Shown piece by piece: positions 19,342 to 41,539 of a stretch of 64,000 nucleotides of DNA. The notes below the pieces were generated by a model. That model made no database searches and was not told where the DNA came from. It saw nothing but the letters and a program-made list of their open reading frames with translations. The DNA is taken from the NCBI GenBank assembly GCA_030590485.1, contig JAUUYL010000001.1, positions 21,760 through 85,759 of the forward strand. The letters are read 5' to 3'. Every line of letters begins with the position of its first letter. The stretch's first letter is position 1. This DNA comes from Lentisphaerota bacterium. Its GTDB lineage: Bacteria; Verrucomicrobiota; Kiritimatiellia; UBA8416; JAUUYL01. A program made the translations under genes and the position numbers.

Positions 19342-19401
19342 CCAACATTGCCAGCATCCTCGACAGCGCAGTTCACGCCCAACAATCAACATTCGAGCGC
19401 A

Positions 19402-20571
19402 TCACAACGAAAGAACCGAAGAATACGTATCGTACAGACTGTCCGTGGCGATATCCAACGAGAATCGCTCTTCAACCCTTTGCAATCCAGCCTGACCAAT
19501 CTGCACAGCCGCGCTTGCATCTCGCAATAACGATAGTACTGACTCCGACATTCCCTCTACATCATACGATGCGTGTAATATTGCCCCTCTACCATTCTCA
19601 GCTGCTTCATTCAAACCAGAAACGTCAGATGCCACAAGAGGCAACCCCGTCGCACCCGCCTCAATTGCAACCCGGCCAAATCCTTCAAAATGTGAGGGTA
19701 AAAGCATTAGGTTAGAAACTTGCATAAGATCAAAGACATCTGTTCTTCGCCCTAAAAGAAGAACCCTCCCCGACAGACCCAGTTTATCAATGCTCATTCT
19801 TATTTTATGCTCCAACGGACCCGAACCAACAAGCAACATTTTGACAGAAGGAAACGATGCATAAACTTTTTTAAAGATCTTCAGCAAGCCTTCGTGATTC
19901 TTTTGTCGTTTAAACGATCCGACGTGCAAGATAACACTTTCACCATCCTTGACACCTACGCTTTCCCTCAATTCGACTTTGGACTGGGCGCTCAGCAAAG
20001 CGGGACTCCGAACTCCATAATAAAGAACTTTCGAAGGCGACGCAATGGAACCGTAATCCTTCTCCAATGCTTCCAAGACACCCCGAGAACACCCCGTCAC
20101 CAAGGAAGAATATTGAAGGGCATAACGGATACTGCGGTTGCTATAATAGCCTCTCAATTGCTTCAATACTGGCGCCCGCAGCCATGTCTGCGCAGGAAAG
20201 ACAGTGTTATGGAAAGATGTGATTACCGGAACATTCAGCGACTTACATATCCAGACAGGCAATCCGCTGTACGCTTCAAGATGATTATGCACCACATCAT
20301 AGTTACGAGATCTAACCAACTTTTTAAGATCACGGACAAAACCTATGTGTAGCGGGGTCAATGGGCTCACAAACACCGAGCCTCCAGCATTTCGAATTTC
20401 ATCGGCCATGTCACCCTCATGCGTCCCCTTGCAGCAAACATCCATACTGCATTTCTTGCTCGGAATGGCATTGGACATAGAAACTATCCACTTTTCTATC
20501 CCACCAGGATCAAGTGTTGTCAGAAGATGCAATACTTTCATATCAAATTCCCCGCAGACAGATTGCGTCAT
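19402..20571 (-). CDS. glycosyltransferase family 4
   Basis: EGFGRVAIEAGATGLPLVASDVSGLNE (GT1 C-terminal domain). Confidence 0.8.
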   Translation of the reverse strand: MTQSVCGEFDMKVLHLLTTLDPGGIEKWIVSMSNAIPSKKCSMDVCCKGTHEGDMADEIRNAGGSVFVSPLTPLHIGFVRDLKKLVRSRNYDVVHNHLEAYSGLPVWICKSLNVPVITSFHNTVFPAQTWLRAPVLKQLRGYYSNRSIRYALQYSSLVTGCSRGVLEALEKDYGSIASPSKVLYYGVRSPALLSAQSKVELRESVGVKDGESVILHVGSFKRQKNHEGLLKIFKKVYASFPSVKMLLVGSGPLEHKIRMSIDKLGLSGRVLLLGRRTDVFDLMQVSNLMLLPSHFEGFGRVAIEAGATGLPLVASDVSGLNEAAENGRGAILHASYDVEGMSESVLSLLRDASAAVQIGQAGLQRVEERFSLDIATDSLYDTYSSVLSL

Positions 20572-21359
20572 ATATTATGAGGCAAATCGTCAATTCCTAA
20601 AACTCTCGGATCGTATTGATTTGTATATTCGGTTGGCGTTATAATCGAGAACCTTTTTTCAGCACACTGTTTCGTATATTCTGATATTTCATTAAGAAAT
20701 CTTGTCTGGTACTCCTGGCTTTTCAAGTAGTGTTGTTTGAATTCGGGCGTTGATCTATCATGCTTTGGCTTTGAGTCATTACAATGCAGATTCTCCCCAT
20801 GATCAATCAGTTTTGACCAACCATCAATTCCAGCAGCATATACGTTTTTTCCGCCCATCACAAAAGCAACTCCACACCCCAATACAGCAACACTCTTACA
20901 GGATGCTTGGATAACACCGTTCTTTATATCAAAGGCGTTGTCATTATCCCCTTTGTACATAATATACTCATACTCCCTACTTATCCTTTTTTCTATTTCA
21001 TAGCGAGGATAATGAACACTGAGCAAAAGCCTTGCACTGCATGTATTTAATCGATCACTAAACTGATCAAAGCGATTATGACTTGTAAACATTACATAAT
21101 CGTACTTCGGTAATATGTCAAAACAGTTATTAACACCTATAACTATAGGGTTTCTCTCTTTGATAAATGCGAGAATCTTCTCTCGATACTTTTTTACAGA
21201 TGGACCTGCAGCTATAATTAATATGTCTCGCCCCTCATGACGATTGTAATAGCTGGGTTTTCTATACCAGACCCATCGGCGTTTTCTCGGTCGCAGTAGC
21301 TTTTTCAGCCTTCGTCCAATAGCATAAAGTTTCTGATCCGGATAGCTCATACCATTCAC
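20568..21359 (-). CDS. DUF115 / MptE-like domain protein (Maf-type; putative nonulosonic-acid or Kdo transferase)
   Basis: ILIIAAGPSVKK...IGVNNCFDILPKYDYVMFTSHNRF fits the GxGPS ... PDY pattern of the MAF_flag10/MptE-like domain. Confidence 0.45.
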   Translation of the reverse strand: MNGMSYPDQKLYAIGRRLKKLLRPRKRRWVWYRKPSYYNRHEGRDILIIAAGPSVKKYREKILAFIKERNPIVIGVNNCFDILPKYDYVMFTSHNRFDQFSDRLNTCSARLLLSVHYPRYEIEKRISREYEYIMYKGDNDNAFDIKNGVIQASCKSVAVLGCGVAFVMGGKNVYAAGIDGWSKLIDHGENLHCNDSKPKHDRSTPEFKQHYLKSQEYQTRFLNEISEYTKQCAEKRFSIITPTEYTNQYDPRVLGIDDLPHNI

Positions 21360-22888
21360 CCTAAATGAGAAAACTTCTCGGAAAATTCTTTTGAAAGCTT
21401 AGCGAACATTTCATTTCCTCGGTCATCAAATTTTTCGGCGATTTCTATATCGCAAAACCTATCTTCAGGGAACCGTAAGTAAAAATGAAAAGTCCGCTGC
21501 AACCCATTTAATTCCTCTTTTGTTATCTGCGGCAGATCGAGAACGCTCTCCATTCTAACCCCGCCATCTCCCACAACTTTTTCAGGATCATACAGCTTAT
21601 TGCTGATGCAATAATCATATATTTCGGTGCCCTTAAAAGGATAGAGCATATTAACATTTGCGGCATCTGGTTCACATGCTCGATTCAACATGATTGTCTC
21701 AAAAATCTGGCTTCTATCCTCTGTTGGATTACCAATAATATTCGATGTTGAGACTCTCAATCCATATTTCTTTGCCGTCTTGAATGCTTCTATAATTTTT
21801 TCGTTTGTGAAATCTCTATTAAAAACAGTTTTTCTTATTTCGGGACTTCCGCTTTCAATTGACATAGATAAGTTTATACAGCCAGCATCAACTATCGTTT
21901 TAATTGAAAAATCTGACACCGTGTTGGCGTGGGTAACAATCGAGAATGGCAGGTCTATTTCCTTTTTATATTTATCCATCAAATCAGTTATGAATTTCTT
22001 AGGAGCTAACAAAAAGTTCTCATCATGAAATTGAATCATGTTTAGCTCATACTTTTCCTTGAAATACTTTACCTCCCCAATAATCCTATCCACAGAAAAC
22101 CGTCGAAGATATCGCCCGTGATCTTTATACAGATTCATTAAGTGATTATTCACACAAAATGTACATCTATTCGGGCAACCTTTACTTATCAAAAAGTTTC
22201 CTGTGCGATAAACCTTCCCTCCTAATGGCCTCCAGATATGCTTATCGCTGAAAAGCCCCCAATCCTGATAGGGCATTTCATCTAATTGTATCAATGCCCG
22301 AAGTCTGTTTTTGTGTATTACTCCTGTGGAATCTTTTACCCACAAATTCTCTATATCGTCAACAGGTTTATTGCTGCTTAAGTTTTTAAGAAGATCAGAT
22401 AAAGCCCCTTCACCTTCACCAACACAGACGACATCAACCCAGTCGTAATTTATAATTTCTTCAGGCACTGTCGTAGGCAGAATCCCACCAGCGACAACCG
22501 GGATATCTCTTTCTTTAGCATGAGGCAACAGTTTTCTAGACAAGGGAAGCATGTTTTCAGTTAAACTGACAGCAATCAAATCAGGCTTCTCAATATCTAA
22601 AGACGCCTCAAATGCCTGCTCAATCGACACCTTTTCCCAATCGGCCCCATACTCAGATAAGTCAGCCTTTTTTACCTGGAAAGTTTCATACCTCCTGTCG
22701 TCATCTGATAGCTCATCACCTTCTTTCATAAAAGTCGTATCAAACAAGCAAACATCCCACTCTGCTTTTTTCGCAACTGAAACTAAATACCCCAAGCTTA
22801 GTGGTATCCGACTACACATCAACACATTGGGGTATAAAAACATTATCTTCATATAATACTTCTCATTCCACACCTCACGACCAGTCAA
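21356..22888 (-). CDS. B12-binding-domain radical SAM enzyme (class B; candidate sugar C-methyltransferase or epimerase)
   Basis: N-terminal cobalamin-binding Rossmann region followed by FLISKGCPNRCTFCVNN (CX3CX2C). Confidence 0.8.
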   Translation of the reverse strand: MTGREVWNEKYYMKIMFLYPNVLMCSRIPLSLGYLVSVAKKAEWDVCLFDTTFMKEGDELSDDDRRYETFQVKKADLSEYGADWEKVSIEQAFEASLDIEKPDLIAVSLTENMLPLSRKLLPHAKERDIPVVAGGILPTTVPEEIINYDWVDVVCVGEGEGALSDLLKNLSSNKPVDDIENLWVKDSTGVIHKNRLRALIQLDEMPYQDWGLFSDKHIWRPLGGKVYRTGNFLISKGCPNRCTFCVNNHLMNLYKDHGRYLRRFSVDRIIGEVKYFKEKYELNMIQFHDENFLLAPKKFITDLMDKYKKEIDLPFSIVTHANTVSDFSIKTIVDAGCINLSMSIESGSPEIRKTVFNRDFTNEKIIEAFKTAKKYGLRVSTSNIIGNPTEDRSQIFETIMLNRACEPDAANVNMLYPFKGTEIYDYCISNKLYDPEKVVGDGGVRMESVLDLPQITKEELNGLQRTFHFYLRFPEDRFCDIEIAEKFDDRGNEMFAKLSKEFSEKFSHLG

Positions 22889-22890
22889 AC

Positions 22891-24507
22891 TTACGCATCA
22901 AACAGCTCTAACAACCCCTCAATTGCAGCCCACCCCATATTCTTTATAGCTCGGTTACTGCTTCCTGCAATATGACAGGTTGTCAAAACATTATCTAATG
23001 AGTTTAATTCGCTATTTACATCAGGCTCTTGCTCATAAACATCTAAGGCCGCTCCTGCCAGCCTACCTTGTCGAAGCGCGTCAACCAAGGCAGCCTCGTC
23101 AACGATTTCCCCTCGAGCTGTATTAATCAAATAAGCCTCTTTCTTCAATTCTCCAAGAAAATCGGAATCAACGTAGTGGTTGTTTCTAGCTTCCCCGGAG
23201 ATATGCAGTGAAATTATATCGGAATTATGCTGAAGATATTTAAGCGTAACAAACTCTGCTTCTGGATGAAGCTCAGTATCCACCAAATCATTCACGAGGA
23301 TTCGTTCGGCTCCAAGAGCTGCAAATTTATCAACAACAACTGGGCCGACATGTCCATACCCAATAATACCGATTGTCATTTCAGATAATTCTTTCCCTGG
23401 AAGTTTAGACCATTTTTTTGTTCTATACCCGACCATTGATTGGTCAATACGCCGTATAAGCATCAATGCAAAAGCCAAAGTCAATTCTGCAACACTATCT
23501 GAATTCACTCCCTTGCGATAGACAAGCTCAACGTCATTCTGTTTAACTGCATCAAAATCGATATTATTGAGTCCGACCCCATATTTTGACACATACCTCA
23601 GATAAGGCAGGGATTCTATAATATCTTTAGAGAACTGCTCTGTGCCTAAAATAACACCATCTGCATCTGCAAGAAAATCAATTAACGCTTGCCCTTTTAG
23701 TTTGCCATTATGACTGTTAACAACAGCATCGGGAAAATACCTCTCAAGCTCCTTTACCAAATACTCATCTTGCGAGAAAGTCTTTGATGTTACAGCAATT
23801 TTGTAATTACCCGTTGCAGATTGGAACCTAACTTTCGGAAGAGACTTTAAAGAACTATATTCTCCCGCAGCATTATAAATACTAATTCCATGACCCAGCA
23901 GTAAAAGCTTAACCTTCATCAACCAATTCTCAAGGTCAGGGTAGCAATATTCTTGATTTAGCTCTATCTGACGCGCACTCAAATGGATGCTTTCGTCAAA
24001 ATATGGATTATCAAGATCTACCAATTCTCCATCAACACCAAGGACGTAAATTCTTTTGCATCCCATCCAAACAGCAAGCTGTATCTCAAACGCCAGAGAG
24101 TCTTCCACATAAACACACTCTGCCAGGTCAAATGAGAAAAATTTAGAATGTTCCGGCGAAGCAAACCTCAAATCAACCTGAATGATGCGCCCTTCCAACT
24201 TTTCCTCAATTCCCTTGTTTTCTTTCAGAACAGCTTCAGGAACCAAATACGACGCATGCGCATATTTATCTAACTCATCCTTAAATGCATCGAAACGCTT
24301 ATTACTCTGAAAACAAATATAGTCCAAATTGTATTTATCTGAAGAGTGCAATAGCTGATTACAGGCGATAGTGACCTTATCTTTCAGTAACTCCAAATTC
24401 AATTCATTTAAGTGAGGAGCGGTTCCCAGACAAAATGCATCTTTACCTTGATGCTTACCTTTTAATTCCTGTATATTCATCGCACTACATCCTCCTTGAT
24501 GACACAT
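22891..24507 (-). CDS. fusion protein: N-terminal DUF115/MptE-like domain plus C-terminal D-isomer-specific 2-hydroxyacid dehydrogenase
   Basis: N-terminus FCLGTAPHLN...VTIACNQ...NLDYICFQSNKRF is MptE-like. C-terminus IGIIGYGHVGPVVVDKF (NAD-binding GxGxxG), LINTARGEIVDEAALVDAL and CHIAGSS is the 2-Hacid_dh_C catalytic region. Confidence 0.75.
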   Translation of the reverse strand: MCHQGGCSAMNIQELKGKHQGKDAFCLGTAPHLNELNLELLKDKVTIACNQLLHSSDKYNLDYICFQSNKRFDAFKDELDKYAHASYLVPEAVLKENKGIEEKLEGRIIQVDLRFASPEHSKFFSFDLAECVYVEDSLAFEIQLAVWMGCKRIYVLGVDGELVDLDNPYFDESIHLSARQIELNQEYCYPDLENWLMKVKLLLLGHGISIYNAAGEYSSLKSLPKVRFQSATGNYKIAVTSKTFSQDEYLVKELERYFPDAVVNSHNGKLKGQALIDFLADADGVILGTEQFSKDIIESLPYLRYVSKYGVGLNNIDFDAVKQNDVELVYRKGVNSDSVAELTLAFALMLIRRIDQSMVGYRTKKWSKLPGKELSEMTIGIIGYGHVGPVVVDKFAALGAERILVNDLVDTELHPEAEFVTLKYLQHNSDIISLHISGEARNNHYVDSDFLGELKKEAYLINTARGEIVDEAALVDALRQGRLAGAALDVYEQEPDVNSELNSLDNVLTTCHIAGSSNRAIKNMGWAAIEGLLELFDA

Positions 24508-25362
24508 CTTCTAAACACTCAACAATTCCCTGCCCTAGATCAAAGAAACTGCACGAAGCCAGTTTACGCGCAACTGTAGGACGAAAGGAATATGGGGTAT
24601 ACAAATAGTGACCTTTATCGATAGAACTTGTATATTCAATGTCGATAGAATCTTCCAGTATTTCATTGATCATTTTAAATAAGTCTTCTTGAGTGATAGG
24701 CTCAAGCCCTGTCAAAGTGAATGTATTATTATGAAATTCTACATCTTCTATTATGTCAACACTCAGTTTAGCGGCATCTCTTGTATGGATATATTCCCTA
24801 ACTTCCTGCCCTGTCCCTTCATGTGAAATTTTTCCTTTAAGCGCCTGCTTCAAAAGCCGGCACATGCCGTTCGATTCATCCGCTCCGGAACCATAAAGGG
24901 ATCCATACCTCACCACTATGTAATTAATTCCACATTTTTGGTTATATTCTTCCATTATTTTCTCAGATGTAAACTTACTGATTCCATAAAAAGACCCTTT
25001 TGTACCGCAGGCATACACACTACTTGCATAGACGACAAGTTCTACGCCGGCACTCTTACTCGCTTCCAGAATATTTATATTGGCAATAACATTCAACTGC
25101 ATTGATTCAAGCGGTAGATCCTTAGCTTTATTCAAATCAGCCAAACCGGCAAAATTATACACAATTTCAACACCAGTATCCATTACAGCAGAAACATCAT
25201 CTGGATTCATAATATCACAATAGACAAACTTACACTTTTGATTAGCTTGTGAAGGTTCATCTAAATCAGCGATGACAACTTGGTATCCGCGCTCTATTAG
25301 TTCACAAACAATACTGCTCCCAACATACCAGAACCGCCAAAAACAGCAACCAACTTACTCAT
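24485..25362 (-). pseudogene. NAD-dependent epimerase/dehydratase (SDR) disrupted by a -1 frameshift near 25319..25321
   Basis: ATG at complement 25360..25362 encodes MSKLVAVFGGSGMLG (GxxGxxG), then hits TAA after 21 codons. The +2 frame continues SSIVCELIERGYQVVIADLDEP... into track ORF 24485..25210, which carries the YxxxK-type motifs. One missing G in a GGG run would restore the frame. Confidence 0.6.
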
Positions 25363-25422
25363 TGCATTAAACCCTTCTTTTCTATGATGCTTGTTTAGCT
25401 GCCAATCATATTACAGCTTTTT

Positions 25423-26121
25423 TCACAGACCTTCAATAAATGTTAAAATATTTTGCGCACGCTTATCCCATGTATACTCCTGAACATCCTCTCGTGCCTG
25501 TTTGCCAAGTTCAGTCGACAATTCCGGTTTATCCAATAATGATTGAATGGAATCAGCTAGCTTATCAACATTGCCAGCTTCAGATAATAGTGCATTCTTA
25601 TTACTTGTAAGGATTTCACCAAGGGACGGAAGATCACTAGCGACAATTGGCACTCCTGAAGCCATGTATTCAAATAATTTCATTGGAGAGCAATAATAAG
25701 CCATATGCTGACTCCAAGGAAATGGAATTGCAACCACATCACATGCTTTCTGCCAATATTTCACTTCATTATTTGGAACCCGATCAAGGAATTTCATATG
25801 TTCATGTGATACGCCATACTCGTCGGCGGTTCTCAAATAATTGTCCACAAGCTCCATTGGTCCTCCAACGCAGAGCAACAGAGGCGGATTCTCGGGATTA
25901 TTAGCAACTAAATGTTTCATTGACTTAACAAGCTCAGGAACTCCCTTTTCCATACCCATAGTTTGAAATCGTCCGATATAACCAACGATACTTTTTTCGA
26001 CAGGAAGATCTAATTTCTCGCGAAGTTCAATTTTTGATTCCGACACGACAAATTCGTCTAGATCAACGGCATCATGCGCTACAAGGATTTTTGCTTCAGG
26101 AAATCCGTTTTCGACAAACAA
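25423..26121 (-). CDS. glycosyltransferase family 4, C-terminal (Glycos_transf_1) half; in the same frame as 26149..26634 across a TAG
   Basis: CSPMKLFEYMASGVPIVASDLPSLGEIL. The track start is a TTG. Upstream in-frame codons read DCITENLKRL back to the TAG at 26149..26151. Confidence 0.7.
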   Translation of the reverse strand: MFVENGFPEAKILVAHDAVDLDEFVVSESKIELREKLDLPVEKSIVGYIGRFQTMGMEKGVPELVKSMKHLVANNPENPPLLLCVGGPMELVDNYLRTADEYGVSHEHMKFLDRVPNNEVKYWQKACDVVAIPFPWSQHMAYYCSPMKLFEYMASGVPIVASDLPSLGEILTSNKNALLSEAGNVDKLADSIQSLLDKPELSTELGKQAREDVQEYTWDKRAQNILTFIEGL

Positions 26122-26148
26122 TCGCTTGAGATTCTCTGTTATACAGTC

Positions 26149-26634
26149 CTAGCCTTCATGTTTTCTGATTCGTTTTATTATTTTCTCCGCTCTAGATTCT
26201 GGAAAGCGATGTGACTCAAATACGATTTTCCCTCGTATGAAGGGCCTGAACAACAACAGGCTATAGGCTATAAACAAGTCCCTGCTAAAAAAAACGATGT
26301 CTTTTCTACTCCATTGCGGCAATGTCAACAGCAAAGTCATTAGGGCATTACAAAAAGATTGAAGAAGAAAACCATACTTCTCCAGCTTTGGATGAATTCG
26401 AGAAAACATCCGCAACCAATCAATAGCAAAAAAACGCCTTATGCAGAAACTCCTGTCTATTTGGTAATAATCAAACGGATCCTTATCCAATTGCTCTTCC
26501 TGCTGGCGATAAGGATAGGTAAGACTTACTTCGCATCCCTTTTTTGAGAAAGCCTGACAGGTTTTCACAATCTGATAACCATTGGCTTTCTCTGTCGGCA
26601 GTCTAGAGTTTGTTAAATATAATATCTGTTTCAT
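26149..26634 (-). CDS. glycosyltransferase family 4, N-terminal (Glyco_trans_4-like) half, terminated by an in-frame TAG
   Basis: MKQILYLTNSRLPTEKANGYQIVKTCQAFSKKGCEVSL is a typical GT4 N-terminal domain. It ends at a TAG in frame with 25423..26121. Confidence 0.7.
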   Translation of the reverse strand: MKQILYLTNSRLPTEKANGYQIVKTCQAFSKKGCEVSLTYPYRQQEEQLDKDPFDYYQIDRSFCIRRFFAIDWLRMFSRIHPKLEKYGFLLQSFCNALMTLLLTLPQWSRKDIVFFSRDLFIAYSLLLFRPFIRGKIVFESHRFPESRAEKIIKRIRKHEG

Positions 26635-27303
26635 CTAATATTTTTCCGCACAAACTAAAAGATAATGCCCTAACCTATTTCTCCCCGGTACAGGAAGGCA
26701 CTTTAATGGGATTCTAAACAAAGCTCCTTTGGCCGTAGAAAACGACAAGATTTTAAAACGAAACTCCAGAAGCAATGCGGCAAGCGATGCTGGAGTAAAT
26801 ATAATTTTATGGTCTTCGTGTTGAGTTGAATTCCTTCCGCGAAAACTCCAATTACCTATCGAACCTATCGAAAGGGCGTTAGGAGTTGATAAAATTAGTT
26901 TTCCTCCAGGCTTTAAAACTCTATGTGTTTCTTTTATTACAGAATGAGCGTCCCAAATATGTTCAATAACTTCACCCAAATGAATGACATCAAATAAATC
27001 ATCCTCAAAGGGCATACTCATAACATTACCTTGGAAATACTCAACTGCATTTGAATTCTCAAATGACGCAGGTATTTTTAGATCCAAGCCATAAACCTTC
27101 CCACCTGAAGCCGAGACATGCGATATGATTTCTGAGTGAAAAGAACTTCCTTCCCCGACAAATCCTATATCTAAGAAACGACTGACAGCACCATCAAGAT
27201 GTGAAAATAGATAGTCTTTTCTTGAATGATGTAGTCTATTAAAAAAGTGCTTCAAGCAAGATCCGTTCTCTGTAGTGACCGATCGTTTATTCACTAACTC
27301 CAT
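26635..27303 (-). CDS. class I SAM-dependent methyltransferase (Methyltransf_11-like)
   Basis: FLDIGFVGEGSS (motif I) and VLKPGGKLILSTPN (motif post-II). Confidence 0.8.
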   Translation of the reverse strand: MELVNKRSVTTENGSCLKHFFNRLHHSRKDYLFSHLDGAVSRFLDIGFVGEGSSFHSEIISHVSASGGKVYGLDLKIPASFENSNAVEYFQGNVMSMPFEDDLFDVIHLGEVIEHIWDAHSVIKETHRVLKPGGKLILSTPNALSIGSIGNWSFRGRNSTQHEDHKIIFTPASLAALLLEFRFKILSFSTAKGALFRIPLKCLPVPGRNRLGHYLLVCAEKY

Positions 27304-27311
27304 ACCGCTCC

Positions 27312-28373
27312 TTATTGACTACTTTCATTGCCCAGCAAAAGACTTATCTTTTCAGAAACTTTTTCTAAGCTATGCATTTTCTCTGTATTGCTTCTCAAGA
27401 ATTGAGCTATTTCTCTTTTTTCATTAATTTCAAGCCTAAAAAACTCAGTTATTTTCTCAGCTAAGCCCCTCGCATTCTTGCATTCGAAAAAGAGTTCTGA
27501 ATGCATTTCGCCAGTCGTAGATTCAAAATTCTTATTGCAGTACAAAGACGGGCACCCGCAGTTAAATGCTTCAAGAACGGCCTTATCTAGAGCTCCGTCA
27601 GGACACAAATTAATATGCACAGACGATTCATGATACAAGCTAACAAGGTCGTCCCCGTAAACATTTCCTGCCAAATGTATTTGACCGCCAAGGCCAAGCT
27701 CATTGACCTTATTCTTAACTTTGTCCTCAAATTCTTCACCACCAGAAGGACAACTCCCAGCCCATGTAACATTTACTATGGCGCCACCTTTTTTCAGCAT
27801 ATCCATAGCTTCAATCAGTGTTAATGGATCTTTGATAGGAGAGATTCTCCCAACGACTAGAATTTCATTCTTTAAAAAATCTCTCTCATTAAAAGAAAAA
27901 TAATCGGAATCGATGCCATGCCCTAATTCAATAAACTTATCATGTTTGTACGGGAAAGCCCCTTTATTAATAGATACAACGTGCTTTGAGAAAAAGTAAG
28001 CTAACTTCAACTTTAACGTTAACTGGCGATGAGCATACCAAGTTACGAGTGGTATTTTTTTTATAAGTAAAATCGGCCCTGCCATTGCAGAAAATAACGG
28101 CATCATATGTGAAAAACAGCCATCATATTTATTTTTATATAATAGCCTAAATAGAATTCTATAAAACTCAAAGAATCGACGAAGTTCGCTGTAACCACTT
28201 TCCTTGCCGACCGAATACACAGAAACATTCCCTCTAACATCAATGCATCCCGCTTGCATAGTGATCACATCTATAGATTCATATTTCTTTGCTAAAGCAT
28301 TTATCCATTTTGTTGTAAAACCTAAAAATGGGTCTTTAATATCTGTAGCCAAATTAAACAATAAGAGTTTCAT
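27312..28373 (-). CDS. glycosyltransferase (GT-B, GT4/GT1-like)
   Basis: 353 aa. C-terminal GT1-like region IHLAGNVYGDDLVSLYHESSVHINLCPDGALDKAVLEAFNCGCP. Confidence 0.65.
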   Translation of the reverse strand: MKLLLFNLATDIKDPFLGFTTKWINALAKKYESIDVITMQAGCIDVRGNVSVYSVGKESGYSELRRFFEFYRILFRLLYKNKYDGCFSHMMPLFSAMAGPILLIKKIPLVTWYAHRQLTLKLKLAYFFSKHVVSINKGAFPYKHDKFIELGHGIDSDYFSFNERDFLKNEILVVGRISPIKDPLTLIEAMDMLKKGGAIVNVTWAGSCPSGGEEFEDKVKNKVNELGLGGQIHLAGNVYGDDLVSLYHESSVHINLCPDGALDKAVLEAFNCGCPSLYCNKNFESTTGEMHSELFFECKNARGLAEKITEFFRLEINEKREIAQFLRSNTEKMHSLEKVSEKISLLLGNESSQ

Positions 28374-29542
28374 TCAACATGCTCCCACATAGCGATCATT
28401 TTATCAGCTAAAGAATCTACAAGGAATCTATTAGTCAGTTGCATTTTGCCTTCTTTTGCATAGCGCGAGCTAAGTTTTTTATCGGCAAGTAGTTTTGTAA
28501 CCCCATCGCATAGTTTCAGCTTGTCTCCACAATTCGCGATGATTCCTGTTTTATCACAATCGATAAGTTCGACTGACCCACTTGTGGAAGTTGACACCAC
28601 CGGAACCCCGCTTAAATAAGATTCGAGAACAACCCGCCCAAAGCTCTCGTGATCTGATGTTAACAAAAAGACATCTGCGGCTGCATATACTTGAGGCAAC
28701 TTGTCATGTGCGACTGCCCCAAGTAAAGTAAACCTATCCTTTAGCCCTTTCTCATCAATATATTTTTTTGCTTCATCAAACATCACGCCATCACCAGCCA
28801 TCACAAAGTGAACATTATTTACATTTAATGCTATTCGTTCTGCTACTTCTATCCATAAAGGCAGGTTTTTGGGTGGATAAAAGTTACCGACAAACAAAAC
28901 AACACGCTTGCGTTTGATAGCAGGATCTATCAAACGCTTATAATATTCTTTATTCTCGTGGTCTGAGACTGGCATGAAGTTGGCGCCGACAGGAACAACA
29001 TGCAACCTCTGGAGAGAGATTCCCAAAACACTATTAACTTCGTTTTTAAGGTATTCAGAAACAACACGAACTCCATCAGAATGCCTTAGCAAATGACTTG
29101 CTACTCGATAACGCCACTGATTAAGTATATGCTCTTTCCGCCAACCTCTCGAAAAAAGATCAAAGTGCAATTGAGGAAGATACTTTGCCTTCACGAGCCG
29201 GCTGTAAAGGTAACCGACAGTACCTTCTTCCCATGGAGTCTGTACTGTCACCAGATCAGGCCGCCAGTTTTTTAAAGCAAATACAATAATACGTATCACA
29301 TCAAACAAGTAGAATATTCTGAATAATGAATTAGTCGGATAAAGGGCTAAACCGTCATCAAGAGTTTGTACACCGTACTCCTCGCTCTTTAAACTATAAC
29401 CAATAAGTCTTATTTCACTATCATTGCCGTATTTTTCACGAAGCATTGACGCATACAGCTGGTGTCGCTTACGAGTGTCACTTGTAATATTGTTTGCGGT
29501 CGAAAAAACAGACCTGTCTTTGCTCAAGATCAGAACCTTCAT
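28370..29542 (-). CDS. glycosyltransferase family 4
   Basis: HESFGRVVLESYLSGVPVVSTSTSGSVELI. Confidence 0.8.
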   Translation of the reverse strand: MKVLILSKDRSVFSTANNITSDTRKRHQLYASMLREKYGNDSEIRLIGYSLKSEEYGVQTLDDGLALYPTNSLFRIFYLFDVIRIIVFALKNWRPDLVTVQTPWEEGTVGYLYSRLVKAKYLPQLHFDLFSRGWRKEHILNQWRYRVASHLLRHSDGVRVVSEYLKNEVNSVLGISLQRLHVVPVGANFMPVSDHENKEYYKRLIDPAIKRKRVVLFVGNFYPPKNLPLWIEVAERIALNVNNVHFVMAGDGVMFDEAKKYIDEKGLKDRFTLLGAVAHDKLPQVYAAADVFLLTSDHESFGRVVLESYLSGVPVVSTSTSGSVELIDCDKTGIIANCGDKLKLCDGVTKLLADKKLSSRYAKEGKMQLTNRFLVDSLADKMIAMWEHVE

Positions 29543-30669
29543 TTAACCTCTTCTTTCAGCAAACTATCAGTCTCATCAACCATTCTGCTAAATTTAAAAG
29601 TTTTTTGGCAATATTCCAGAGCTTGCTCAACGAGCTGCTCTCTGCGAGACTGATTGTCTAAAGTAGATACCACGGCCTTTTCCAATTCGCCCAGTTCTCC
29701 AAATGGGATCAGGCACCCCGTTTTGCCATCTATGACAGCTTCACCTGTTCCTCCAACATCCGTTGCTATTACGGGAACACCAGCTAACATCGCTTCGAGA
29801 GCAACATGCGGAAGCCCTTCGTATGAAGAGTTCAAGATAAATAGATCCGATTGGAATAACAAATTTGACACTTTTTGCTTCGTTATATTTCCGGTAAAGA
29901 TAACTCGATCATTTAGCCCCTGCCTCTCCACTTGAAGATCAAGCTCTTGCCTTAAAGGTCCATCACCAACAATAACTAAACGGCAGTTATTTAACCTCTC
30001 TAATGCATCAATGATAGAAGCAACACCTTTCCAGGGAGTAAGCCGACACACTGTGATTAAAGTATTACCATTAAACTCTGGCAATGCATCGTCGCCTTCG
30101 ATAGCCTCGGGCAACTCTACTGCGTTATAAACAACCTGGATTTTTTCACTAGGAATTTTCCATGCACTAACGATTCTTTTCAAATAGTTACTTGGGGTTA
30201 TGACCTTTGCTGCATGCCTGAGTGGTGTTGTTCTAATAAAGTCCAGTATCTTTAAGACAATACCTTTAGAAGCACTTTGGTACTCATCAATAGTCCCAGT
30301 GAAAAGACCTTTGTTTCGGGCCCGCTCCCAGGCATAATCGCCCACTATCTTATGCACTGCAGGTTTTCTGGTTATAAAGGAAGCCAGCATAGATTCAAAG
30401 CCTAAGCCATTAACATAAATTAAATCTGCATTTTTCGCATACCTGACAATTACTGCAACAGTCTTCATCCAGCGCAAAGGCTTAAACACAGTACGAGCTA
30501 CTCTTATCAGAGCAAAGTTATAATGATCATCATGTTCAAGATTGTCACTAAGGGTAATAACCGAAACCCTATGCCCTCTATCAATAAACTCTGCCGCGAC
30601 CTTCGAAACATATGACGCAGGACCGCCAATATCTGGAGGGAAAATACCTGTTACTATGACAATATTCAT
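29539..30669 (-). CDS. glycosyltransferase family 4
   Basis: YEGLPHVALEAMLAGVPVIATDVGGTGEAV. Confidence 0.8.
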   Translation of the reverse strand: MNIVIVTGIFPPDIGGPASYVSKVAAEFIDRGHRVSVITLSDNLEHDDHYNFALIRVARTVFKPLRWMKTVAVIVRYAKNADLIYVNGLGFESMLASFITRKPAVHKIVGDYAWERARNKGLFTGTIDEYQSASKGIVLKILDFIRTTPLRHAAKVITPSNYLKRIVSAWKIPSEKIQVVYNAVELPEAIEGDDALPEFNGNTLITVCRLTPWKGVASIIDALERLNNCRLVIVGDGPLRQELDLQVERQGLNDRVIFTGNITKQKVSNLLFQSDLFILNSSYEGLPHVALEAMLAGVPVIATDVGGTGEAVIDGKTGCLIPFGELGELEKAVVSTLDNQSRREQLVEQALEYCQKTFKFSRMVDETDSLLKEEVK

Positions 30670-31433
30670 TGTGAAATATCTTTCCAGGGAATGTCTCGAT
30701 CTAACAGCTTCTCTAACCCACTTTTTTGATGGGCAACTACAGGCGCCAAATATTCAATCACGCATTGAGGTATTTTCTGCGCACTTGAAGACGCATGCAC
30801 TTTTTTTGCACCCTGACTCACGTCCATAACTTTTCGCGGGTCAAGATCAAGGAATAGATATAAAGACTCCAACTCTTTGTCCGGTTGGGCCACTATATCT
30901 TCCAGAAACATATAGTGTATCTGCTTTCCTGAGTAGCACTGCCTCCAATTTGCGATACAAGTTATATAATCATTTCGAAGACTTACAACATTCTGTTTAC
31001 AAAAATCAATCAATTCACTTTCTGTTGCATTGCAAAGCTTTCTTTTGTACATCTCTGAAAAATCTTTTTTCGCATGAGACCACGTCCTGTCAATCGGATT
31101 TCTCATTACATAAATAATTTTCTGATCTGGCATCCATTTATTTATAAGAGCAATGGTATCTTGTGATTGAACAGCATAGGCAGGAGTTATCTCTCCAACT
31201 TTCTTGCCAAGGATCTTGCCGGGCAAGAACAAGGCTAAATACCGTAACTTCTGCAAGAATGAATCGGGTCTCATTTTGTCAATTCGACGATCAAAGAAAT
31301 GCTTTTCTTTCGAGGTTGTTTTCCAGACATCAGGGTGACTGGTGATATTTTCCCACAACCATGAGGAACCTGCGCGGGCTGCGCCAATACCAATAAAATC
31401 AGGCTGGAACTTTTTCATAAAACTAATATTCAT
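30666..31433 (-). CDS. sulfotransferase (Sulfotransfer_3-like)
   Basis: FIGIGAARAGSSWLWENITSHPDV...KEKHFF and YVMRNPIDRTWS. Confidence 0.7.
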   Translation of the reverse strand: MNISFMKKFQPDFIGIGAARAGSSWLWENITSHPDVWKTTSKEKHFFDRRIDKMRPDSFLQKLRYLALFLPGKILGKKVGEITPAYAVQSQDTIALINKWMPDQKIIYVMRNPIDRTWSHAKKDFSEMYKRKLCNATESELIDFCKQNVVSLRNDYITCIANWRQCYSGKQIHYMFLEDIVAQPDKELESLYLFLDLDPRKVMDVSQGAKKVHASSSAQKIPQCVIEYLAPVVAHQKSGLEKLLDRDIPWKDISQ

Positions 31434-32281
31434 TTGTTAGTCCAAATCCGGTAGCCGTAAATTCGATTAAGCCAGCTACCACATATTAAAAATTTAAGTT
31501 TTTCCTTCCAAGGTAGCTCGCATTTCCATCCCTCATCCACACGAATCGTTGCTACGCGCTGCGACCTCATACGGTTCCCTCCAATACCCAGGTCAGCATG
31601 CGCTCTAAAGTCCAGCATAGCACTCTCAAATGCTATACCAATAAAAGAACATATCGCCTTAAGCTCTTCTGTCGGGTCTGCGGTTAACTTTTCATACCCG
31701 ACCTGCAACCAATTTGAATCAAGGAATTTGTTCTTTAATAAAAGAGCCCGCACCCCACTTGACAACCATCGTAAAAAGCCAACTCTAAAGGAACCGTATT
31801 TTACATGATATGAATTAACTATTGCTCGGCCATCTCTCACTAAATGAATCACTTTCAGAGAAACGTCGTTACTTTCAGCAAGAAGCAGAAGTCTCTGCCA
31901 TGATTTAGACGAATCAACTAAAATTATTTTTCCTGAAACTGCCCTAATTGAACGGAAAAGACACCCATTATGCTTCATGTATATATTTCTCTCAGCGGCG
32001 GTCCACTTCCTTAACTCAGAGGCAGAGGGGTGTTTAAAACGAGCCAGCTCAACAGTCTCCCCTAAGTCAGAAACATACTGCTCACGAACCTGATGCCAGA
32101 ATTCTGCTGCAGACTTATTATCAGACTGACTCAATCGCTCAAAGTTAATTGTATCGATTTCACTCAAGCCCAGAACTTTAGAGTGCCCATTCAACAGCAT
32201 ATTTAGCAATGTTGATCCACAGTGGCCTGCACCAAGAATGTATACGACCTCAACGGCTTTATTGTTAATAGAACTATTCAT
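31430..32281 (-). CDS. sulfotransferase
   Basis: VVYILGAGHCGSTLLNMLL P-loop-like PAPS motif. Confidence 0.65.
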   Translation of the reverse strand: MNSSINNKAVEVVYILGAGHCGSTLLNMLLNGHSKVLGLSEIDTINFERLSQSDNKSAAEFWHQVREQYVSDLGETVELARFKHPSASELRKWTAAERNIYMKHNGCLFRSIRAVSGKIILVDSSKSWQRLLLLAESNDVSLKVIHLVRDGRAIVNSYHVKYGSFRVGFLRWLSSGVRALLLKNKFLDSNWLQVGYEKLTADPTEELKAICSFIGIAFESAMLDFRAHADLGIGGNRMRSQRVATIRVDEGWKCELPWKEKLKFLICGSWLNRIYGYRIWTNK

Positions 32282-33260
32282 TTGTTAATAAATGAAATGA
32301 CTTTTTAAAAAACTTCACATTATCTTTCCATTGCCAGTTTAGTTCGATATCTGATCTAATTGATCGAGACAATGATTCTTGTTTCACCAAGTCATTATTC
32401 AAAATCTCTTTTTCAAAGAGATTAACAATCGAATCAATTGTTGGTTCAATAAAATATCCATTGACGCCATGCTTGATTAGCTCTCGCATATTCCCAACTA
32501 AAGTGGTGATAATGGGAGTACCGCATGCTCCCGCCTCTAGAGCAGGATTGGGAGTTCCTTCATTCATGCTAGTGCATATGTAGTAGTCTAAGCATTGGTA
32601 ATACTCTCTCATTTGTTGAGCATTTTTGTGCTTATCTTTTGCGGAAGTTACTATCAATGGTACAGCTTTAATATCATATTGCTTTTCCAAAACTTGCATC
32701 GCTTCTTTAAATAATGTGAAGTTTTTTGCCTCTCTAATTTTTCCGACCCAACCGACTTTTATAGTGGAATCAGGTAGTGGCGCTGTATCTATAGGTTGGT
32801 AAAAACCTGAGTCAACGCCATTAGGACAATAGAAGATCTCCGGCAAATCTTGACTAACTAATTCTTTAAGGATAAGTGAGTTGACCGTAACAACAGTAAA
32901 TTGTTTTAGATACGCTATAGATGCTTGATATACCGCTTCAGGCTCAGCTCCTAAAGGAATTGGATTCAAAGGATCAAGCCCGCCACCAATATTAGTGTGA
33001 CTTGTGATAGCCACGCCAAAGTTTTTGTAATCTGATTCTTTAAATGTTAGACGCCCGGCCTCAAGTCCTCGGGAAATTCGCCAGGTAGAAAAGAAAACTT
33101 TTTTACCTTTTAGAACTCCAAGTATCCACAGCACTTTAAATTGTCTTTTTGTTAATACAGTAAACTTTATATCATTTATATATTGCCTGAAATAATCGAC
33201 TTTTTTGTAGTGAACCCAATCTTTAGAGCCAACGACATAGTAGATCCGCTTTTTTCTCAT
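32274..33260 (-). CDS. glycosyltransferase (GT1-like C-terminal domain)
   Basis: YICTSMNEGTPNPALEAGACGTPIITTLVGNMRELI. Confidence 0.7.
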   Translation of the reverse strand: MRKKRIYYVVGSKDWVHYKKVDYFRQYINDIKFTVLTKRQFKVLWILGVLKGKKVFFSTWRISRGLEAGRLTFKESDYKNFGVAITSHTNIGGGLDPLNPIPLGAEPEAVYQASIAYLKQFTVVTVNSLILKELVSQDLPEIFYCPNGVDSGFYQPIDTAPLPDSTIKVGWVGKIREAKNFTLFKEAMQVLEKQYDIKAVPLIVTSAKDKHKNAQQMREYYQCLDYYICTSMNEGTPNPALEAGACGTPIITTLVGNMRELIKHGVNGYFIEPTIDSIVNLFEKEILNNDLVKQESLSRSIRSDIELNWQWKDNVKFFKKSFHLLTNE

Positions 33261-35179
33261 ACATCTGCTTCCGTAGCATTCTGAGCCATATTAAGACTAT
33301 AATAAAGTCCCTTTCTTTCCAGGAGTTCATCATGCTTTCCAACCTCAACAACTCGTCCCTTGTCAAAAACCACAATCTGGTCGAAGCCTTTAATAGCACT
33401 AAGTCGGTGAGCTGCGACAATAATGATCTTATCATCTTTCATTTTTCTCAAACTATTGTATACAAAAGCCTCATTCTCGTAATCAAGGGCATTTGTCCCT
33501 TCATCAATAAGCATAATATTCGAGTCTTGCAAAAACATTCTTGCAAGTCCAACGCGTTGCCTCTCCCCGCCGGAAATAGTTAGACCTCTTTCGCCCAGTC
33601 CTGTCTCCAGCCCATCAGGTAACTCTTTTAAAAATTGAGTGGCAGAAGCAAATTCAACTGCTTTATCGATTTCTTCCGGCGATGCATTCTCATTGAAAAA
33701 TGAAATGTTATTCTTTAATGTGTCATGAAATACAATTGGCTCCTGATTCATATATCCAATTGCAGCTTTATATGACAAATAATGCCTTCTTTCTTTAACA
33801 CTGTTTCCATCTATACAAAGGTCTCCTTCATCAAAACGACGAACCCCAGACAGAATATCCAATAATGTTGACTTTCCCGACCCGGAAAACCCTACTAACG
33901 CCGTTAGAGTTCCTTGTTTAAACTGTAAGGTTATTTCATCTAAGGCAGGCTTATCTGACGAAACATATGAGAATCTACCACCCGATACATCTAGTGATTT
34001 AGGTTCTGCTGGTATAACATAGCTTAATTCTTCACGAGAGTCCGTATCTGGCGGTAATGACTCTATCAACTCAATAACTCTCACTAATGGGGCATAAGTA
34101 GACAAGATTGAAGAACGTGTTTTTTGCAGAACAGAACCGCTTGAAGCGAGCTTCAGCAAAACAAATGCGTAGCTAACCAGATAAATAGACTTTCCATCGG
34201 CTCCAAATAAGTCAGGCTGATTAATTATCAGGAAACCTCCCATCCCCAAAAAAAGTAAAATCATAAAAAAATCTTGGCTAACCTGCGATAATCCAATCAG
34301 ACTATATAACTTGATACTGTTCTTTTCATATTTTCGATGAATATCCATATAATTAGATTTTTCACGATTTTCCAGCCCTCCGACTTTAATCATCTTAATT
34401 CCATAAACAATTTGCTGGAATACATGCATAACATTAGAGGCCAATGCATTATTTTTCCAACTATACGTTTTCAATTTACGGTCTATGACTAAATGTATAA
34501 GAAAATAAAATCCCCCAAGGCCAAGAACCATAAACGTCATCGAGCTATTCATCGAGAAGAGGATGGCTGTATAAATCAGAACTTGCACAGATGATGTTAA
34601 AAATGATGATAATTGATTGACCATCGAGCTAAAACGAGCTGCTTCCGAGTTCAAAAGAAAAATCAACTCGCCGCTACGAGATTCATTAAAATAGTCGATA
34701 TCTTGAAGCATCAGGCTCGAAAGAGCTTTGCCACGTGTTATCCGCAATAACGAGAATCTTATTATCTGATTTAGAAATATTTGCCCAAGCTTTAGCGCGA
34801 TTGAGAGGAATGCAAATAAAACAAAACAAAGAAAAACAGTAAGCAAGACATCCTCTTTAGTTTCAATTTTCACTATTGACGATAAAGAAAAGGAGGCCCC
34901 CCAGACAGAGAAGTCTAACATGCTTTCAGGGGTATCCCCAATGTAGGATATGCCCTTAATTAAGCCGACAATGCATCCGCTTTTCAGTCCCTCTACACAG
35001 CCTACAACAACACCAATAAGAGTAAGAATAATTAACTTCACCTTATTACCATGCAATAGGCCATAAAGAGCAAGGTACTCTTTTGATGAGAATATAGTTA
35101 GTAATCCTATATTTTTCTTGTAAAAATTGACTCGGTGATTACTTGCGTTCTCATTTCGTATAAAACTATCTTTTTTCAT
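33257..35179 (-). CDS. ABC transporter, fused permease/ATPase exporter (MsbA/KpsMT-like polysaccharide or lipid exporter)
   Basis: N-terminal 6-TM domain. Walker A GFSGSGKSTLLDIL, signature LSGGERQRVGLAR, Walker B IMLIDEGTNALD. Confidence 0.85.
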   Translation of the reverse strand: MKKDSFIRNENASNHRVNFYKKNIGLLTIFSSKEYLALYGLLHGNKVKLIILTLIGVVVGCVEGLKSGCIVGLIKGISYIGDTPESMLDFSVWGASFSLSSIVKIETKEDVLLTVFLCFVLFAFLSIALKLGQIFLNQIIRFSLLRITRGKALSSLMLQDIDYFNESRSGELIFLLNSEAARFSSMVNQLSSFLTSSVQVLIYTAILFSMNSSMTFMVLGLGGFYFLIHLVIDRKLKTYSWKNNALASNVMHVFQQIVYGIKMIKVGGLENREKSNYMDIHRKYEKNSIKLYSLIGLSQVSQDFFMILLFLGMGGFLIINQPDLFGADGKSIYLVSYAFVLLKLASSGSVLQKTRSSILSTYAPLVRVIELIESLPPDTDSREELSYVIPAEPKSLDVSGGRFSYVSSDKPALDEITLQFKQGTLTALVGFSGSGKSTLLDILSGVRRFDEGDLCIDGNSVKERRHYLSYKAAIGYMNQEPIVFHDTLKNNISFFNENASPEEIDKAVEFASATQFLKELPDGLETGLGERGLTISGGERQRVGLARMFLQDSNIMLIDEGTNALDYENEAFVYNSLRKMKDDKIIIVAAHRLSAIKGFDQIVVFDKGRVVEVGKHDELLERKGLYYSLNMAQNATEADV

Positions 35180-35206
35180 ATTATTATAATGAGCTTTAAG
35201 CTCTAT

Positions 35207-35998
35207 CTAGTTCTCACTTTTAACGAATGATCGCTCACTATTATTCACCCTGAACAAACAGGGAAATGATACAGAACCTTCAAAATACTCATCAACAGCT
35301 TTTCTTGCGCCCTGCCAACTGCCATAGTCATCTTGTGAGAAAAAACCTTTATTGACTAATAGAGGGTACAAATAATTCAGTTCATGTTTCGTCGATTCGT
35401 AAAAATCCGTATCTAGCCTAAGAAATGCAATTTTCTCATGATTTTGATTTGGGACTGTCTCAAGAATGTCCCCCTTTATAAAATGAATTTTATTTTCAGG
35501 GTAACCTGTTGCTAAGACATTTTTCTTAACTTGATCAAGGGAACAGTAGCATCTCTGATTATAACCATCTTTCCGGCGGGCCTTCTGTCGTTTAATATTC
35601 TTTTCATATGTCAGTCCTCTATGCTCTTTGACATCATGGACGCATGGTTCTGTCATGCCTGTGAATGTATCATACAGATAGACATCCCGTGAGTCATCTC
35701 CAAATTTCAATAACGCTAACAGCATCATATTCACCATTCGCCCCTGAAACACACCACACTCAACAAAATCTCCTTCAATATTATTCTTTACAAGGTATTC
35801 CGTGCCCTTATAAGTCGTATAAATCTTGTCATTATAACCAGAACAAATGAGTTGGCTATTTCCCGAAAACAGCTGTACAAAATCCGAATCTAAATCATGC
35901 GGCAACGGCTTCTCTTTTTTGCAGTCACTTGAGTTTCTAACTATTTTATAACCTATCTTATCTAATAAATTCTTTACAACTTGTTTCATTTTATACAT
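35207..35998 (-). CDS. TylF/MycF-family (macrocin-type) sugar O-methyltransferase
   Basis: DFVECGVFQGRMVNMM...DSRDVYLYDTFTGM is characteristic of the TylF domain. Confidence 0.7.
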   Translation of the reverse strand: MYKMKQVVKNLLDKIGYKIVRNSSDCKKEKPLPHDLDSDFVQLFSGNSQLICSGYNDKIYTTYKGTEYLVKNNIEGDFVECGVFQGRMVNMMLLALLKFGDDSRDVYLYDTFTGMTEPCVHDVKEHRGLTYEKNIKRQKARRKDGYNQRCYCSLDQVKKNVLATGYPENKIHFIKGDILETVPNQNHEKIAFLRLDTDFYESTKHELNYLYPLLVNKGFFSQDDYGSWQGARKAVDEYFEGSVSFPCLFRVNNSERSFVKSEN

Positions 35999-36067
35999 CC
36001 ATTTTTATTATCAGATATCTGCCATCAAGACTTTTGTTATTCTGACAACACTATTCATCAAAACGAT

Positions 36068-37108
36068 CTAATCACTCTTCTCAATCTCCGTAATACTTTT
36101 CTTGTTTTCAACATACCTTTTCTCTGCAATCATAAGCTCTCCGAGCACAGATTCTGCTACACCAGTATTAATCTTATTAGGCGTAGTTGCTTTAGGTGCT
36201 AATTTAAAAATAGCGTATATATCTTCATTACCCTCAACCATTTCAAAACCGACTTTCTCAAACAACGATTTAAGATTGGCCAAATGAAAAATTGAGACGT
36301 GCTCAATGACAAAATATTTCATGAGATCAAAATCGTATTTTCCATCGTTGACTGCCAATAATCCAGGCACCTCTACATAAAGCAACCCATCTGGTCTAAG
36401 CATCTTCTTAAGACCACATATAAACCCCTTTGGATCAAGAATGTGTTCTAAAACATGACGCAAGATCATGGCATCATACAGAACCTCCGGCTGTTCAGGT
36501 GCAAGTGAATTTATTAAAGGGAGCTCATATTTGTCAACACCGTACTTCAAATAAGTGTTGTCTGTATCATAGCCAACAATGGAGTAGCCATGATCAGCAA
36601 ATACAGAGACAATCCCCCCACCGCCACAGCCAACTTCAATAAGCTTACACTCTTCAACATTCTTTAAATGACCCGATAGCCGCTTAAAAACCTTGCGACC
36701 ATTTCTGACTTGTCTTTTAAAGCGTCGGGAAAAGCCCTTCTCCTCTTCTAAACCTTCTTGAAGAGACCTGTAATAGTTTGAGTAAAAACAGCTCATTGAC
36801 TCTGAATCGAAGTTAGGTGTAGTCTGCACCAAAGCACAATTGCGACAGAGCAACTGATCAACAGAGAATCCATATCTATCGTAAGCTGCAATACGAGAAA
36901 AGCGCCTACCTCCACAAATGTGGCACTTTTCCAATGGGACAGTCGTCAGCTGGCCGTTTCTTATTTTCGCCTGTAACTCTTTAATTGTTTTGCTGCGTAT
37001 GCCAAACATATTTCCAAAATTAAACTTCTGTCTATCACGAAAAAAGCGCTTAGAAATCACATAATCTTCAATTTCGATTCCATTTTCCATAGTATGTGTA
37101 ACCTTCAA
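36068..37108 (-). CDS. class I SAM-dependent methyltransferase with N-terminal Cys4 zinc ribbon (sugar C/O-methyltransferase-like)
   Basis: CHICGGRRF...CRNCALVQT, then IEVGCGGGGIVSVFADHG and LRPDGLLYVEVP. Confidence 0.7.
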   Translation of the reverse strand: MKVTHTMENGIEIEDYVISKRFFRDRQKFNFGNMFGIRSKTIKELQAKIRNGQLTTVPLEKCHICGGRRFSRIAAYDRYGFSVDQLLCRNCALVQTTPNFDSESMSCFYSNYYRSLQEGLEEEKGFSRRFKRQVRNGRKVFKRLSGHLKNVEECKLIEVGCGGGGIVSVFADHGYSIVGYDTDNTYLKYGVDKYELPLINSLAPEQPEVLYDAMILRHVLEHILDPKGFICGLKKMLRPDGLLYVEVPGLLAVNDGKYDFDLMKYFVIEHVSIFHLANLKSLFEKVGFEMVEGNEDIYAIFKLAPKATTPNKINTGVAESVLGELMIAEKRYVENKKSITEIEKSD

Positions 37109-37167
37109 ACCATATCACTCTGTCTTGATCTATATTTCCTCACGACTTATTACAAGACGAGACCACG

Positions 37168-38717: not shown

Positions 38718-38813
38718 ATCTTTTTCGTCTAATATAATAATTCACCTCCTACAGCATCATAGTACAGCCGTGAATTCATAAGAAAAACAGGCAACAAGAA
38801 CAGTATCTTCATA

Positions 38814-39698: not shown

Positions 39699-39718
39699 TT
39701 TTAAATAGCCCTTTCAAA

Positions 39719-41536: not shown

Positions 41537-41539
41537 GGT

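Follow-up and report, generated by a model that had tools for sequence, protein, structure and literature searches.

What does a bacterium make of a glycosyltransferase locus in which two open reading frames (ORFs) lie in the same frame and are separated by a single TAG: two proteins, one recoded enzyme, or no functional enzyme at all? This question is raised by a locus in a stretch of 64 kb of DNA, which was analyzed as a whole and is referred to below as the window. We conclude that this is a case of ordinary recent gene inactivation, or less likely of a sequence error, that involves no new mechanism. The reading that we favor, and consider probable, is a recent genuine nonsense mutation which, together with a frameshift in the neighboring gene, removed one step of a variable surface-glycan pathway. 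The features on which this reading is based are compiled in Table 1.

Table 1. Features of the interrupted glycosyltransferase locus and its neighbors (positions in the window)
Feature	Position	Strand	Basis or remark
SDR-family NAD-dependent sugar epimerase/dehydratase gene, frameshifted	24485..25362	-	PF01370, frame join
Disrupted GT4-type (GT-B fold) glycosyltransferase gene	25423..26634	-	403 codons plus terminal TGA
3' fragment, 232-aa ORF, TTG (residue 172) to TGA	25423..26121	-
Nine sense codons, GAC TGT ATA ACA GAG AAT CTC AAG CGA (DCITENLKR)	26122..26148	-
Premature TAG, codon 162 of 403	26149..26151	-	Alignment column and codon usage
5' fragment, ATG initiated, 161 codons, most of the N-terminal Rossmann-like domain	26152..26634	-
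Class I methyltransferase gene, intact, upstream, abutting the broken gene	26635..27303	-	PF08241, PF13489
Partner GT4 glycosyltransferase gene, intact	27312..28373	-	Pfam

Two ORFs are the parts of one GT4-type glycosyltransferase gene

Translation of the minus strand from position 26634 to 25423 gave one frame of 404 codons with a single internal stop, the premature TAG, which reads CTA on the plus strand. The 161 amino acids (aa) before this stop, the stop itself, and the 241 codons that follow add up to 403 residues, so that the extent, the shared frame, and the total length of ~403 aa given in the original prediction were reproduced. The ATG of the 5' fragment follows the TAG stop of the methyltransferase gene upstream without a gap. 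The nine codons for DCITENLKR lie between the premature TAG and the first possible restart codon, a TTG at 26121, for which the only candidate ribosome-binding site is a weak AGAG located 12 nt upstream. From the end of an N-domain helix, the coding region of the 3' fragment extends over the crossover region and the complete C-domain, which binds the nucleotide sugar.

The C-terminal part matched the Pfam family PF00534 (Glycos_transf_1) with 90.9 bits (cutoff, 26.4 bits) over profile positions 2 to 171 of 172, and it also matched PF13692 (Glyco_trans_1_4) and PF13524 (Glyco_trans_1_2). The 161-aa N-terminal ORF alone gave no Pfam match; over its entire length, it can be aligned to the N-domains of full-length homologues in which PF13439/PF13579 is present. 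When the joined sequence was used as a query, 3,422 database matches were retrieved. Among the best 120 of these, 118 were uninterrupted proteins of 396 to 456 aa that covered 98 to 100% of the query, and the remaining two were the C-fragment from the window itself and a partial sequence that is truncated where its contig of 1,058 bp ends. The nearest full-length relatives in this set of 120 were ~51% identical, and the partial match was 56% identical.

An AlphaFold2 model of the joined protein, based on 31 sequences, had a pLDDT of 94.9 and a pTM of 0.92. When this model was submitted to Foldseek, the nearest solved structures included MshA (E = 2e-21, TM 0.75) and PimB' (E = 5e-19, TM 0.76) as well as BshA and HepE, and a profile search of PDB sequences retrieved MshA with an E value of 2e-26. 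None of the NCBIfam equivalogs reached its cutoff, the best being TIGR04063 with 102 bits versus the 442 needed. Residue Glu322, located in the segment FEYMA, is invariant in 31 of 31 sequences. Eight residues before it there is a tyrosine, Tyr314, which is also tyrosine in the consensus of the 31 sequences; the EX7E motif is hence only half present and can be termed EX7E-like. The protein thus shares with MshA (PDB 3c4q/3c48), PimB' (3oka), and BshA (5d00) the GT-B fold of two Rossmann domains and a PF00534 C-domain with the invariant Glu322. It differs from them in its sequence, with an identity of only 13 to 19% to solved structures, in Tyr314 replacing the first Glu of the EX7E motif, and in that its gene is interrupted. 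Taken together, the PF00534 match, the full-length homologues, the model, and the structural matches agree with the original prediction of a GT4-type GT-B enzyme of ~403 aa, and we assign the gene product as a predicted single-chain, retaining-type glycosyltransferase of this class.

The stop lies inside the N-terminal domain and most likely replaced a leucine codon

In an alignment with 30 homologues, the column of the stop contained Leu in 20 sequences, Val in 6, Ile in 2, and Trp and Thr in 1 each, and it belongs to a hydrophobic segment, LDxLVVxT, that is conserved. In the model, the N-domain is made up of alternating strands and helices; residue 162 is situated between the helices 146-156 and 167-175, and the sole strand-like DSSP call in between is residue 164. 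We take the segment at the stop to be the final N-domain strand. The crossover region extends from about residue 176 to 215, and the first strand of the C-domain comprises residues 216 to 220. According to both alignment and model, the stop is therefore predicted to lie inside the N-terminal domain, ~15 residues before the linker, and the proposed location of the junction in the natural linker between the domains had to be abandoned. Since the break occurs inside the N-domain, the two ORFs cannot correspond to two clean domains. The 161-aa product ends before the final strand and helix of the N-domain and has none of the donor-binding C-domain, whereas a product restarted at the TTG would begin in the middle of a helix and lack the N-domain. 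Residues 162 to 171 are absent from both; by alignment and model, DCITENLKR accounts for the final strand of the N-domain and for helix 167-175 up to its middle.

Two of the codons that differ from TAG by one base, TTG (Leu) and TGG (Trp), specify residues that occur in the family; the others do not. With 13 of 46 Leu codons, TTG shares first place in the Leu codon usage of the gene. Because Leu is the most frequent residue in the column and TTG is both one step away and common in the gene, a change from TTG to TAG is the most parsimonious. The ancestral codon was thus most likely TTG (Leu162), which would correspond to an A-to-T change at position 26150 of the plus strand.

The adjacent SDR gene carries a second lesion

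The next gene downstream of the transferase is the SDR gene, and the apparent gap of 212 nt between the two contains coding sequence: translation from an ATG at 25362 yields MSKLVAVFGGSGMLG, the beginning of an SDR Rossmann fold. This frame runs into TAA TAG at 25299..25294, and the remainder of the gene, listed as ORF 24485..25210, is in the -1 frame. The site of a 1-nt deletion can be placed at about 25319-25326, between ttggg and agc, which is inside the GxxGxxG NAD-binding motif (between GGSGMLG and SSIV). Adding one base at this site restores GGSGMLGSSIVCELIERGY, and the match to PF01370 (Epimerase) increases from 86.5 bits (profile positions 52 to 229) for the unjoined sequence to 126.3 bits (profile positions 2 to 229) for the joined one. 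As judged from the reading frame, the SDR gene appears to be independently inactivated by this deletion, which is 830 nt away from the TAG and was absent from the original prediction.

The locus is part of a probably variable polysaccharide region

The first 42 kb of the window are devoted to polysaccharide biosynthesis and encode Wzy-like proteins, an initiating Bac_transf transferase, a UDP-GlcNAc 2-epimerase, a PglF/WbpM-like dehydratase, many GT4 transferases, several methyltransferases, a B12/radical-SAM enzyme, MptE-like proteins, a cytidylyltransferase, and an ABC exporter. Of the five PF13469 sulfotransferases in the window, three are located within 19400..42300. This segment differs in base composition: its GC content is 37 to 41% (19.4 to 42.3 kb), as compared to 43 to 49% elsewhere. 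It contains GT4 transferases, four methyltransferases, the B12/radical-SAM enzyme, the cytidylyltransferase, which is of the CMP-sugar type, the ABC exporter, and a MarR-like regulator. Exact look-ups of five proteins of this island found each to be a singleton cluster among 15 billion sequences. The island 19400..42300 is probably strain specific and horizontally acquired and is probably dedicated to a sulfated, methylated glycan.

Two further observations concern this region. (i) A 538-aa ORF (22891..24507, minus strand) has a weak MptE-like (DUF115/Maf-type) N-terminal region, which is below the Pfam cutoff, and its remainder is a D-2-hydroxyacid dehydrogenase (PF02826, 155 bits; PF00389). 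This combination is unusual and may have a role in glycan modification. A second MptE-like protein (20568..21359, minus strand) is encoded beside the B12-binding radical SAM enzyme. (ii) A pair of AbiEii toxin and AbiEi antitoxin (type IV toxin-antitoxin system; 43930..45352, minus strand) is found ~1.6 kb from the island boundary, on its GC-rich side.

Homologues of the broken gene with 51 to 52% identity are present in the two closest related loci, L004 (1169..4312) and L005 (5396..9185). In both, the order is a transferase like the partner GT4 enzyme of the window, a variable modifying gene, and the homologue of the broken transferase. The gene in the middle is a deacetylase or AsnB-like gene in these loci and a methyltransferase gene in the window. 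These data suggest that the two transferases are a conserved pair and make up a module whose tailoring enzyme can be exchanged. Downstream of the homologue, where the window has the SDR gene, L004 has a different gene that encodes a membrane protein, and the contig of L005 ends just past the homologue.

To place the window taxonomically, we consulted the matches to its MraY. The best named ones were "bacterium E08(2017)" (75%) and "bacterium B17" (69%), followed by Verrucomicrobia, Kiritimatiellia (64%), and Lentisphaerae metagenome-assembled genomes at 64 to 66%. These matches place the organism loosely, as a member of the PVC superphylum that is probably close to Kiritimatiellia. The nearest relative reached via MraY, a metagenome contig (L003), has 89% nucleotide identity; it spans the cell wall gene cluster, shares with the window the gene order between mraY and tonB, and does not include the island. 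The cluster itself (48710..61615, minus strand) has the order mraZ-rsmH-ftsL-ftsI-murE-murF-mraY-murD, a gene for a LysM-domain protein, ftsW, and then exbB-exbD-tonB in the place of murG/murC; the identities of ftsW, exbB, exbD, tonB, mraY, and ftsI were checked, and the remaining genes were named according to their size and order.

Sulfated glycosaminoglycan-like exopolymers are known from cultured Kiritimatiellae, and a gene cluster for a putative exopolymer of this type has been described in Pontiella sulfatireligans F21 (PMC7356697). The window resembles this cluster in that it encodes GT4/GT2 transferases, PF13469 sulfotransferases, methyltransferases, and sugar-nucleotide enzymes; the likeness is one of gene content within the same class of bacteria (PMC7356697). 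The word "pseudogene" does not occur in that article (PMC7356697).

Genuine mutation or sequence artifact

Apart from its stop, the broken gene is well preserved. It retains 42 of the 42 invariant columns of the family, its mean conservation score of 2.30 is within the family range of 2.0 to 2.61, and it has no further stops or frameshifts. Its identity to its relatives (36.5% in the N-half and 51.9% in the C-half) is close to that among the relatives (38.7% and 53.6%, respectively). A gene that is otherwise not degraded indicates that the event is either recent or an error. The main alternative to a genuine mutation is thus that the gene is intact in the organism and that the TAG, and perhaps also the SDR deletion, is an error of base calling, polishing, or strain consensus. 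We consider this less likely than a genuine mutation; it carries more weight than any of the other alternatives.

A number of data are in line with such an error. (i) The rest of the gene looks functional, with its complete set of invariant columns and its family-typical divergence; however, an "otherwise perfect" gene would equally be expected after a real mutation of recent date. (ii) In the SDR gene, a single base is missing at a short run of G and A, where indel errors classically occur. (iii) The two lesions are clustered and sit in the island, which has a low GC content, is apparently strain specific, and is thus the kind of region in which metagenome-style assemblies are least dependable, and the singleton status of the island proteins would be compatible with a draft or metagenome-derived assembly. 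(iv) The stop is surrounded by an atypical cluster of second-position T-to-A differences. The seven positions KHEG-stop-DC are the most atypical segment of this length in the protein, with His in place of Leu at -3 and Asp in place of Val at +1, both of which correspond to such a change. The deviation of this segment is -2.7; intact homologues go down to -3.96, and the deviation alone is not significant.

Other data argue against an error. The window contains no Ns, and no lesion was noticed in its other ORFs, most of which have domain matches of normal extent, while a few are without a Pfam match by which they could be judged. Of all single-base changes in the gene, 5.3% create a stop. One chance nonsense error therefore implies ~19 substitution errors, and at the error rate required many more lesions should have been left, especially frameshifts, of which a single one was seen. 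The number of disrupted genes is 2 of about 57 (3.5%), which is an ordinary pseudogene fraction. Two lesions in adjacent genes fit equally well with the decay of a pathway and with a locally unreliable stretch of assembly. Taken together, these data lead us to infer that the lesions are biological rather than errors.

Relatives of more than 56% identity were found neither in the protein database nor among genome and metagenome contigs; the best identities were 33 to 37% in species-representative genomes and 52% in JGI metagenome contigs. Exact-protein look-ups of the C-fragment and of the neighboring methyltransferase identified no other contig.

Three further scenarios were considered and rejected. 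A chimera or a recombination between paralogues at the stop is not compatible with the fact that both halves are nearest to the same homologues, at family-typical identity, and that there are no meaningful repeats. A compensating pair of frameshifts around the stop was considered since the alternative frame reads RLGL, which is vaguely similar to RLDxL; this similarity was treated as chance because the in-frame reading aligns (C164, T166, and L169-K170-R171-L172-F173). Elsewhere in the window, the ORFs 38148..38717 and 37168..38229 have the appearance of a second split gene; their overlap is due to an over-extended TTG start, and an internal ATG gives a normal glycosyltransferase of ~327 aa.

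A functional split enzyme is improbable

An enzyme composed of two chains would require that the 161-aa product and a C-terminal product reinitiated at the TTG associate noncovalently, in the manner of Alg13/Alg14. Several features are suggestive of such an arrangement: both ORFs belong to one operon, the spacing of 27 nt between them is within what is known for termination-reinitiation in bacteria, the C-fragment holds the complete Glycos_transf_1 domain, and the source assembly calls both ORFs as separate proteins, including the 232-aa product. As in Alg13/Alg14, two adjacent ORFs jointly span the GT-B fold. However, we did not find two complete domains, which define the Alg13/Alg14 arrangement, since the stop is at residue 162, the restart at residue 172, and the crossover begins only at about residue 176. 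In contrast to Alg13/Alg14, the split is thus inside the N-domain, ten residues are lost from both products, and no relative has the same split. None of the 118 full-length relatives among the best 120 of the 3,422 matches is split, and the protein is a single chain in the closest related loci (L004 and L005). In addition, the TTG with its weak and badly spaced AGAG is a poor start. A functional split enzyme is thus very improbable.

TAG is a normal terminator in the window

A full-length enzyme, possibly at a regulated low level, would also result if the TAG was decoded by read-through, a suppressor tRNA, pyrrolysine insertion, or a reassigned code. The frame is open across all 403 codons, and basal UAG read-through is a general trait that occurs at low frequency in any bacterium. 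These points are outweighed by the use of TAG in the window. The stops of its 57 curated minus-strand genes are TGA in 22, TAG in 19, and TAA in 16 cases. The genes that end with TAG include mraY, ftsW, exbB, and exbD, with essential single-function genes among them, and in each of these cases the next gene is a separate one whose domain match is full length. No internal TAG interrupts the other ORFs of the window. TAG is hence a normal terminator in the window. The RNA that follows the premature TAG does not fold better than shuffled sequence (z = +0.61), Rfam gave nothing relevant near the stop, and the 64-kb window contains no tRNA genes. The aligned site is an ordinary buried Leu/Val position, at which no special residue is expected. 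The base at +4 is G, which is not known to be a leaky context. Decoding of the TAG is therefore the least probable of the readings considered here. Of the options that the original prediction had offered, programmed read-through is thus not upheld, and a nonsense mutation is the most likely one.

The distribution of stops at gene junctions deserves mention. At same-frame junctions with the next gene 0 to 40 nt downstream, TAG was found in 9 cases, TAA in 2, and TGA in none; at other-frame junctions, TAG was found in 2 of 9 cases, and at 4-nt overlaps, TGA was found in 9 of 9. We rejected this excess of TAG as a sign of read-through, since the downstream genes encode separate proteins (MurD, ExbB, ExbD, TonB, and others). 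It is probably a consequence of operon architecture and small numbers, with TGA being taken up by the numerous ATGA overlaps.

There is also the scenario that the TAG is tolerated and that some active enzyme is made by low-level UAG read-through or by reinitiation at the TTG 27 nt downstream. We give this little credence. If true, a constitutive transferase would have been converted into a low-dose one that tunes one sugar on a sulfated surface glycan of a Kiritimatiellia-like bacterium.

Proposed loss of a sugar transfer step and its implications

We thus return to the nonsense mutation and propose the following sequence of events. In the setting of a large polysaccharide region that includes a low-GC island, in what would be a Kiritimatiellia-like bacterium of the PVC superphylum, a single base change, most simply TTG (Leu162) to TAG, would end translation after 161 residues. 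The truncated product, without the end of the acceptor-binding N-domain and without all of the nucleotide-sugar-binding C-domain, is predicted to be catalytically inactive. The adjacency of the transferase and SDR genes suggests that they are functionally linked and may represent one dispensable step, in which a sugar nucleotide is made or modified and the sugar then transferred. This step may have been lost or selected against, for example, by the pressure of phages or grazers on the surface glycan, which would have left both genes free to decay, and the cell would now make its glycan without that sugar.

Nonsense and frameshift lesions in glycosyltransferase and sugar-modifying genes of O-antigen, capsule, and exopolysaccharide loci underlie differences in serotype and rough variants of many bacteria. 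The locus described here resembles such pseudogenes in that one disabling point lesion has affected an otherwise intact transferase gene of a low-GC, strain-variable glycan cluster, and in that there is a second lesion in a neighboring sugar-nucleotide gene. It differs from them in that it is known from one sequence and belongs to a little-studied PVC lineage.

The significance of these data beyond a corrected annotation, namely, one disrupted GT4 gene and one disrupted SDR gene, is slight. In the annotation, 26149..26634 and 25423..26121 should be merged into one disrupted gene instead of appearing as two proteins, and the same holds for the SDR gene. If the lesions were errors, they would mark a locally unreliable stretch of the assembly. 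If they are real, the strain probably makes a surface polysaccharide or exopolysaccharide that lacks one sugar or modification, and the locus would illustrate, on a small scale, the diversification of variable glycan islands through gene decay in a PVC lineage that has received little study and is known for sulfated exopolymers.
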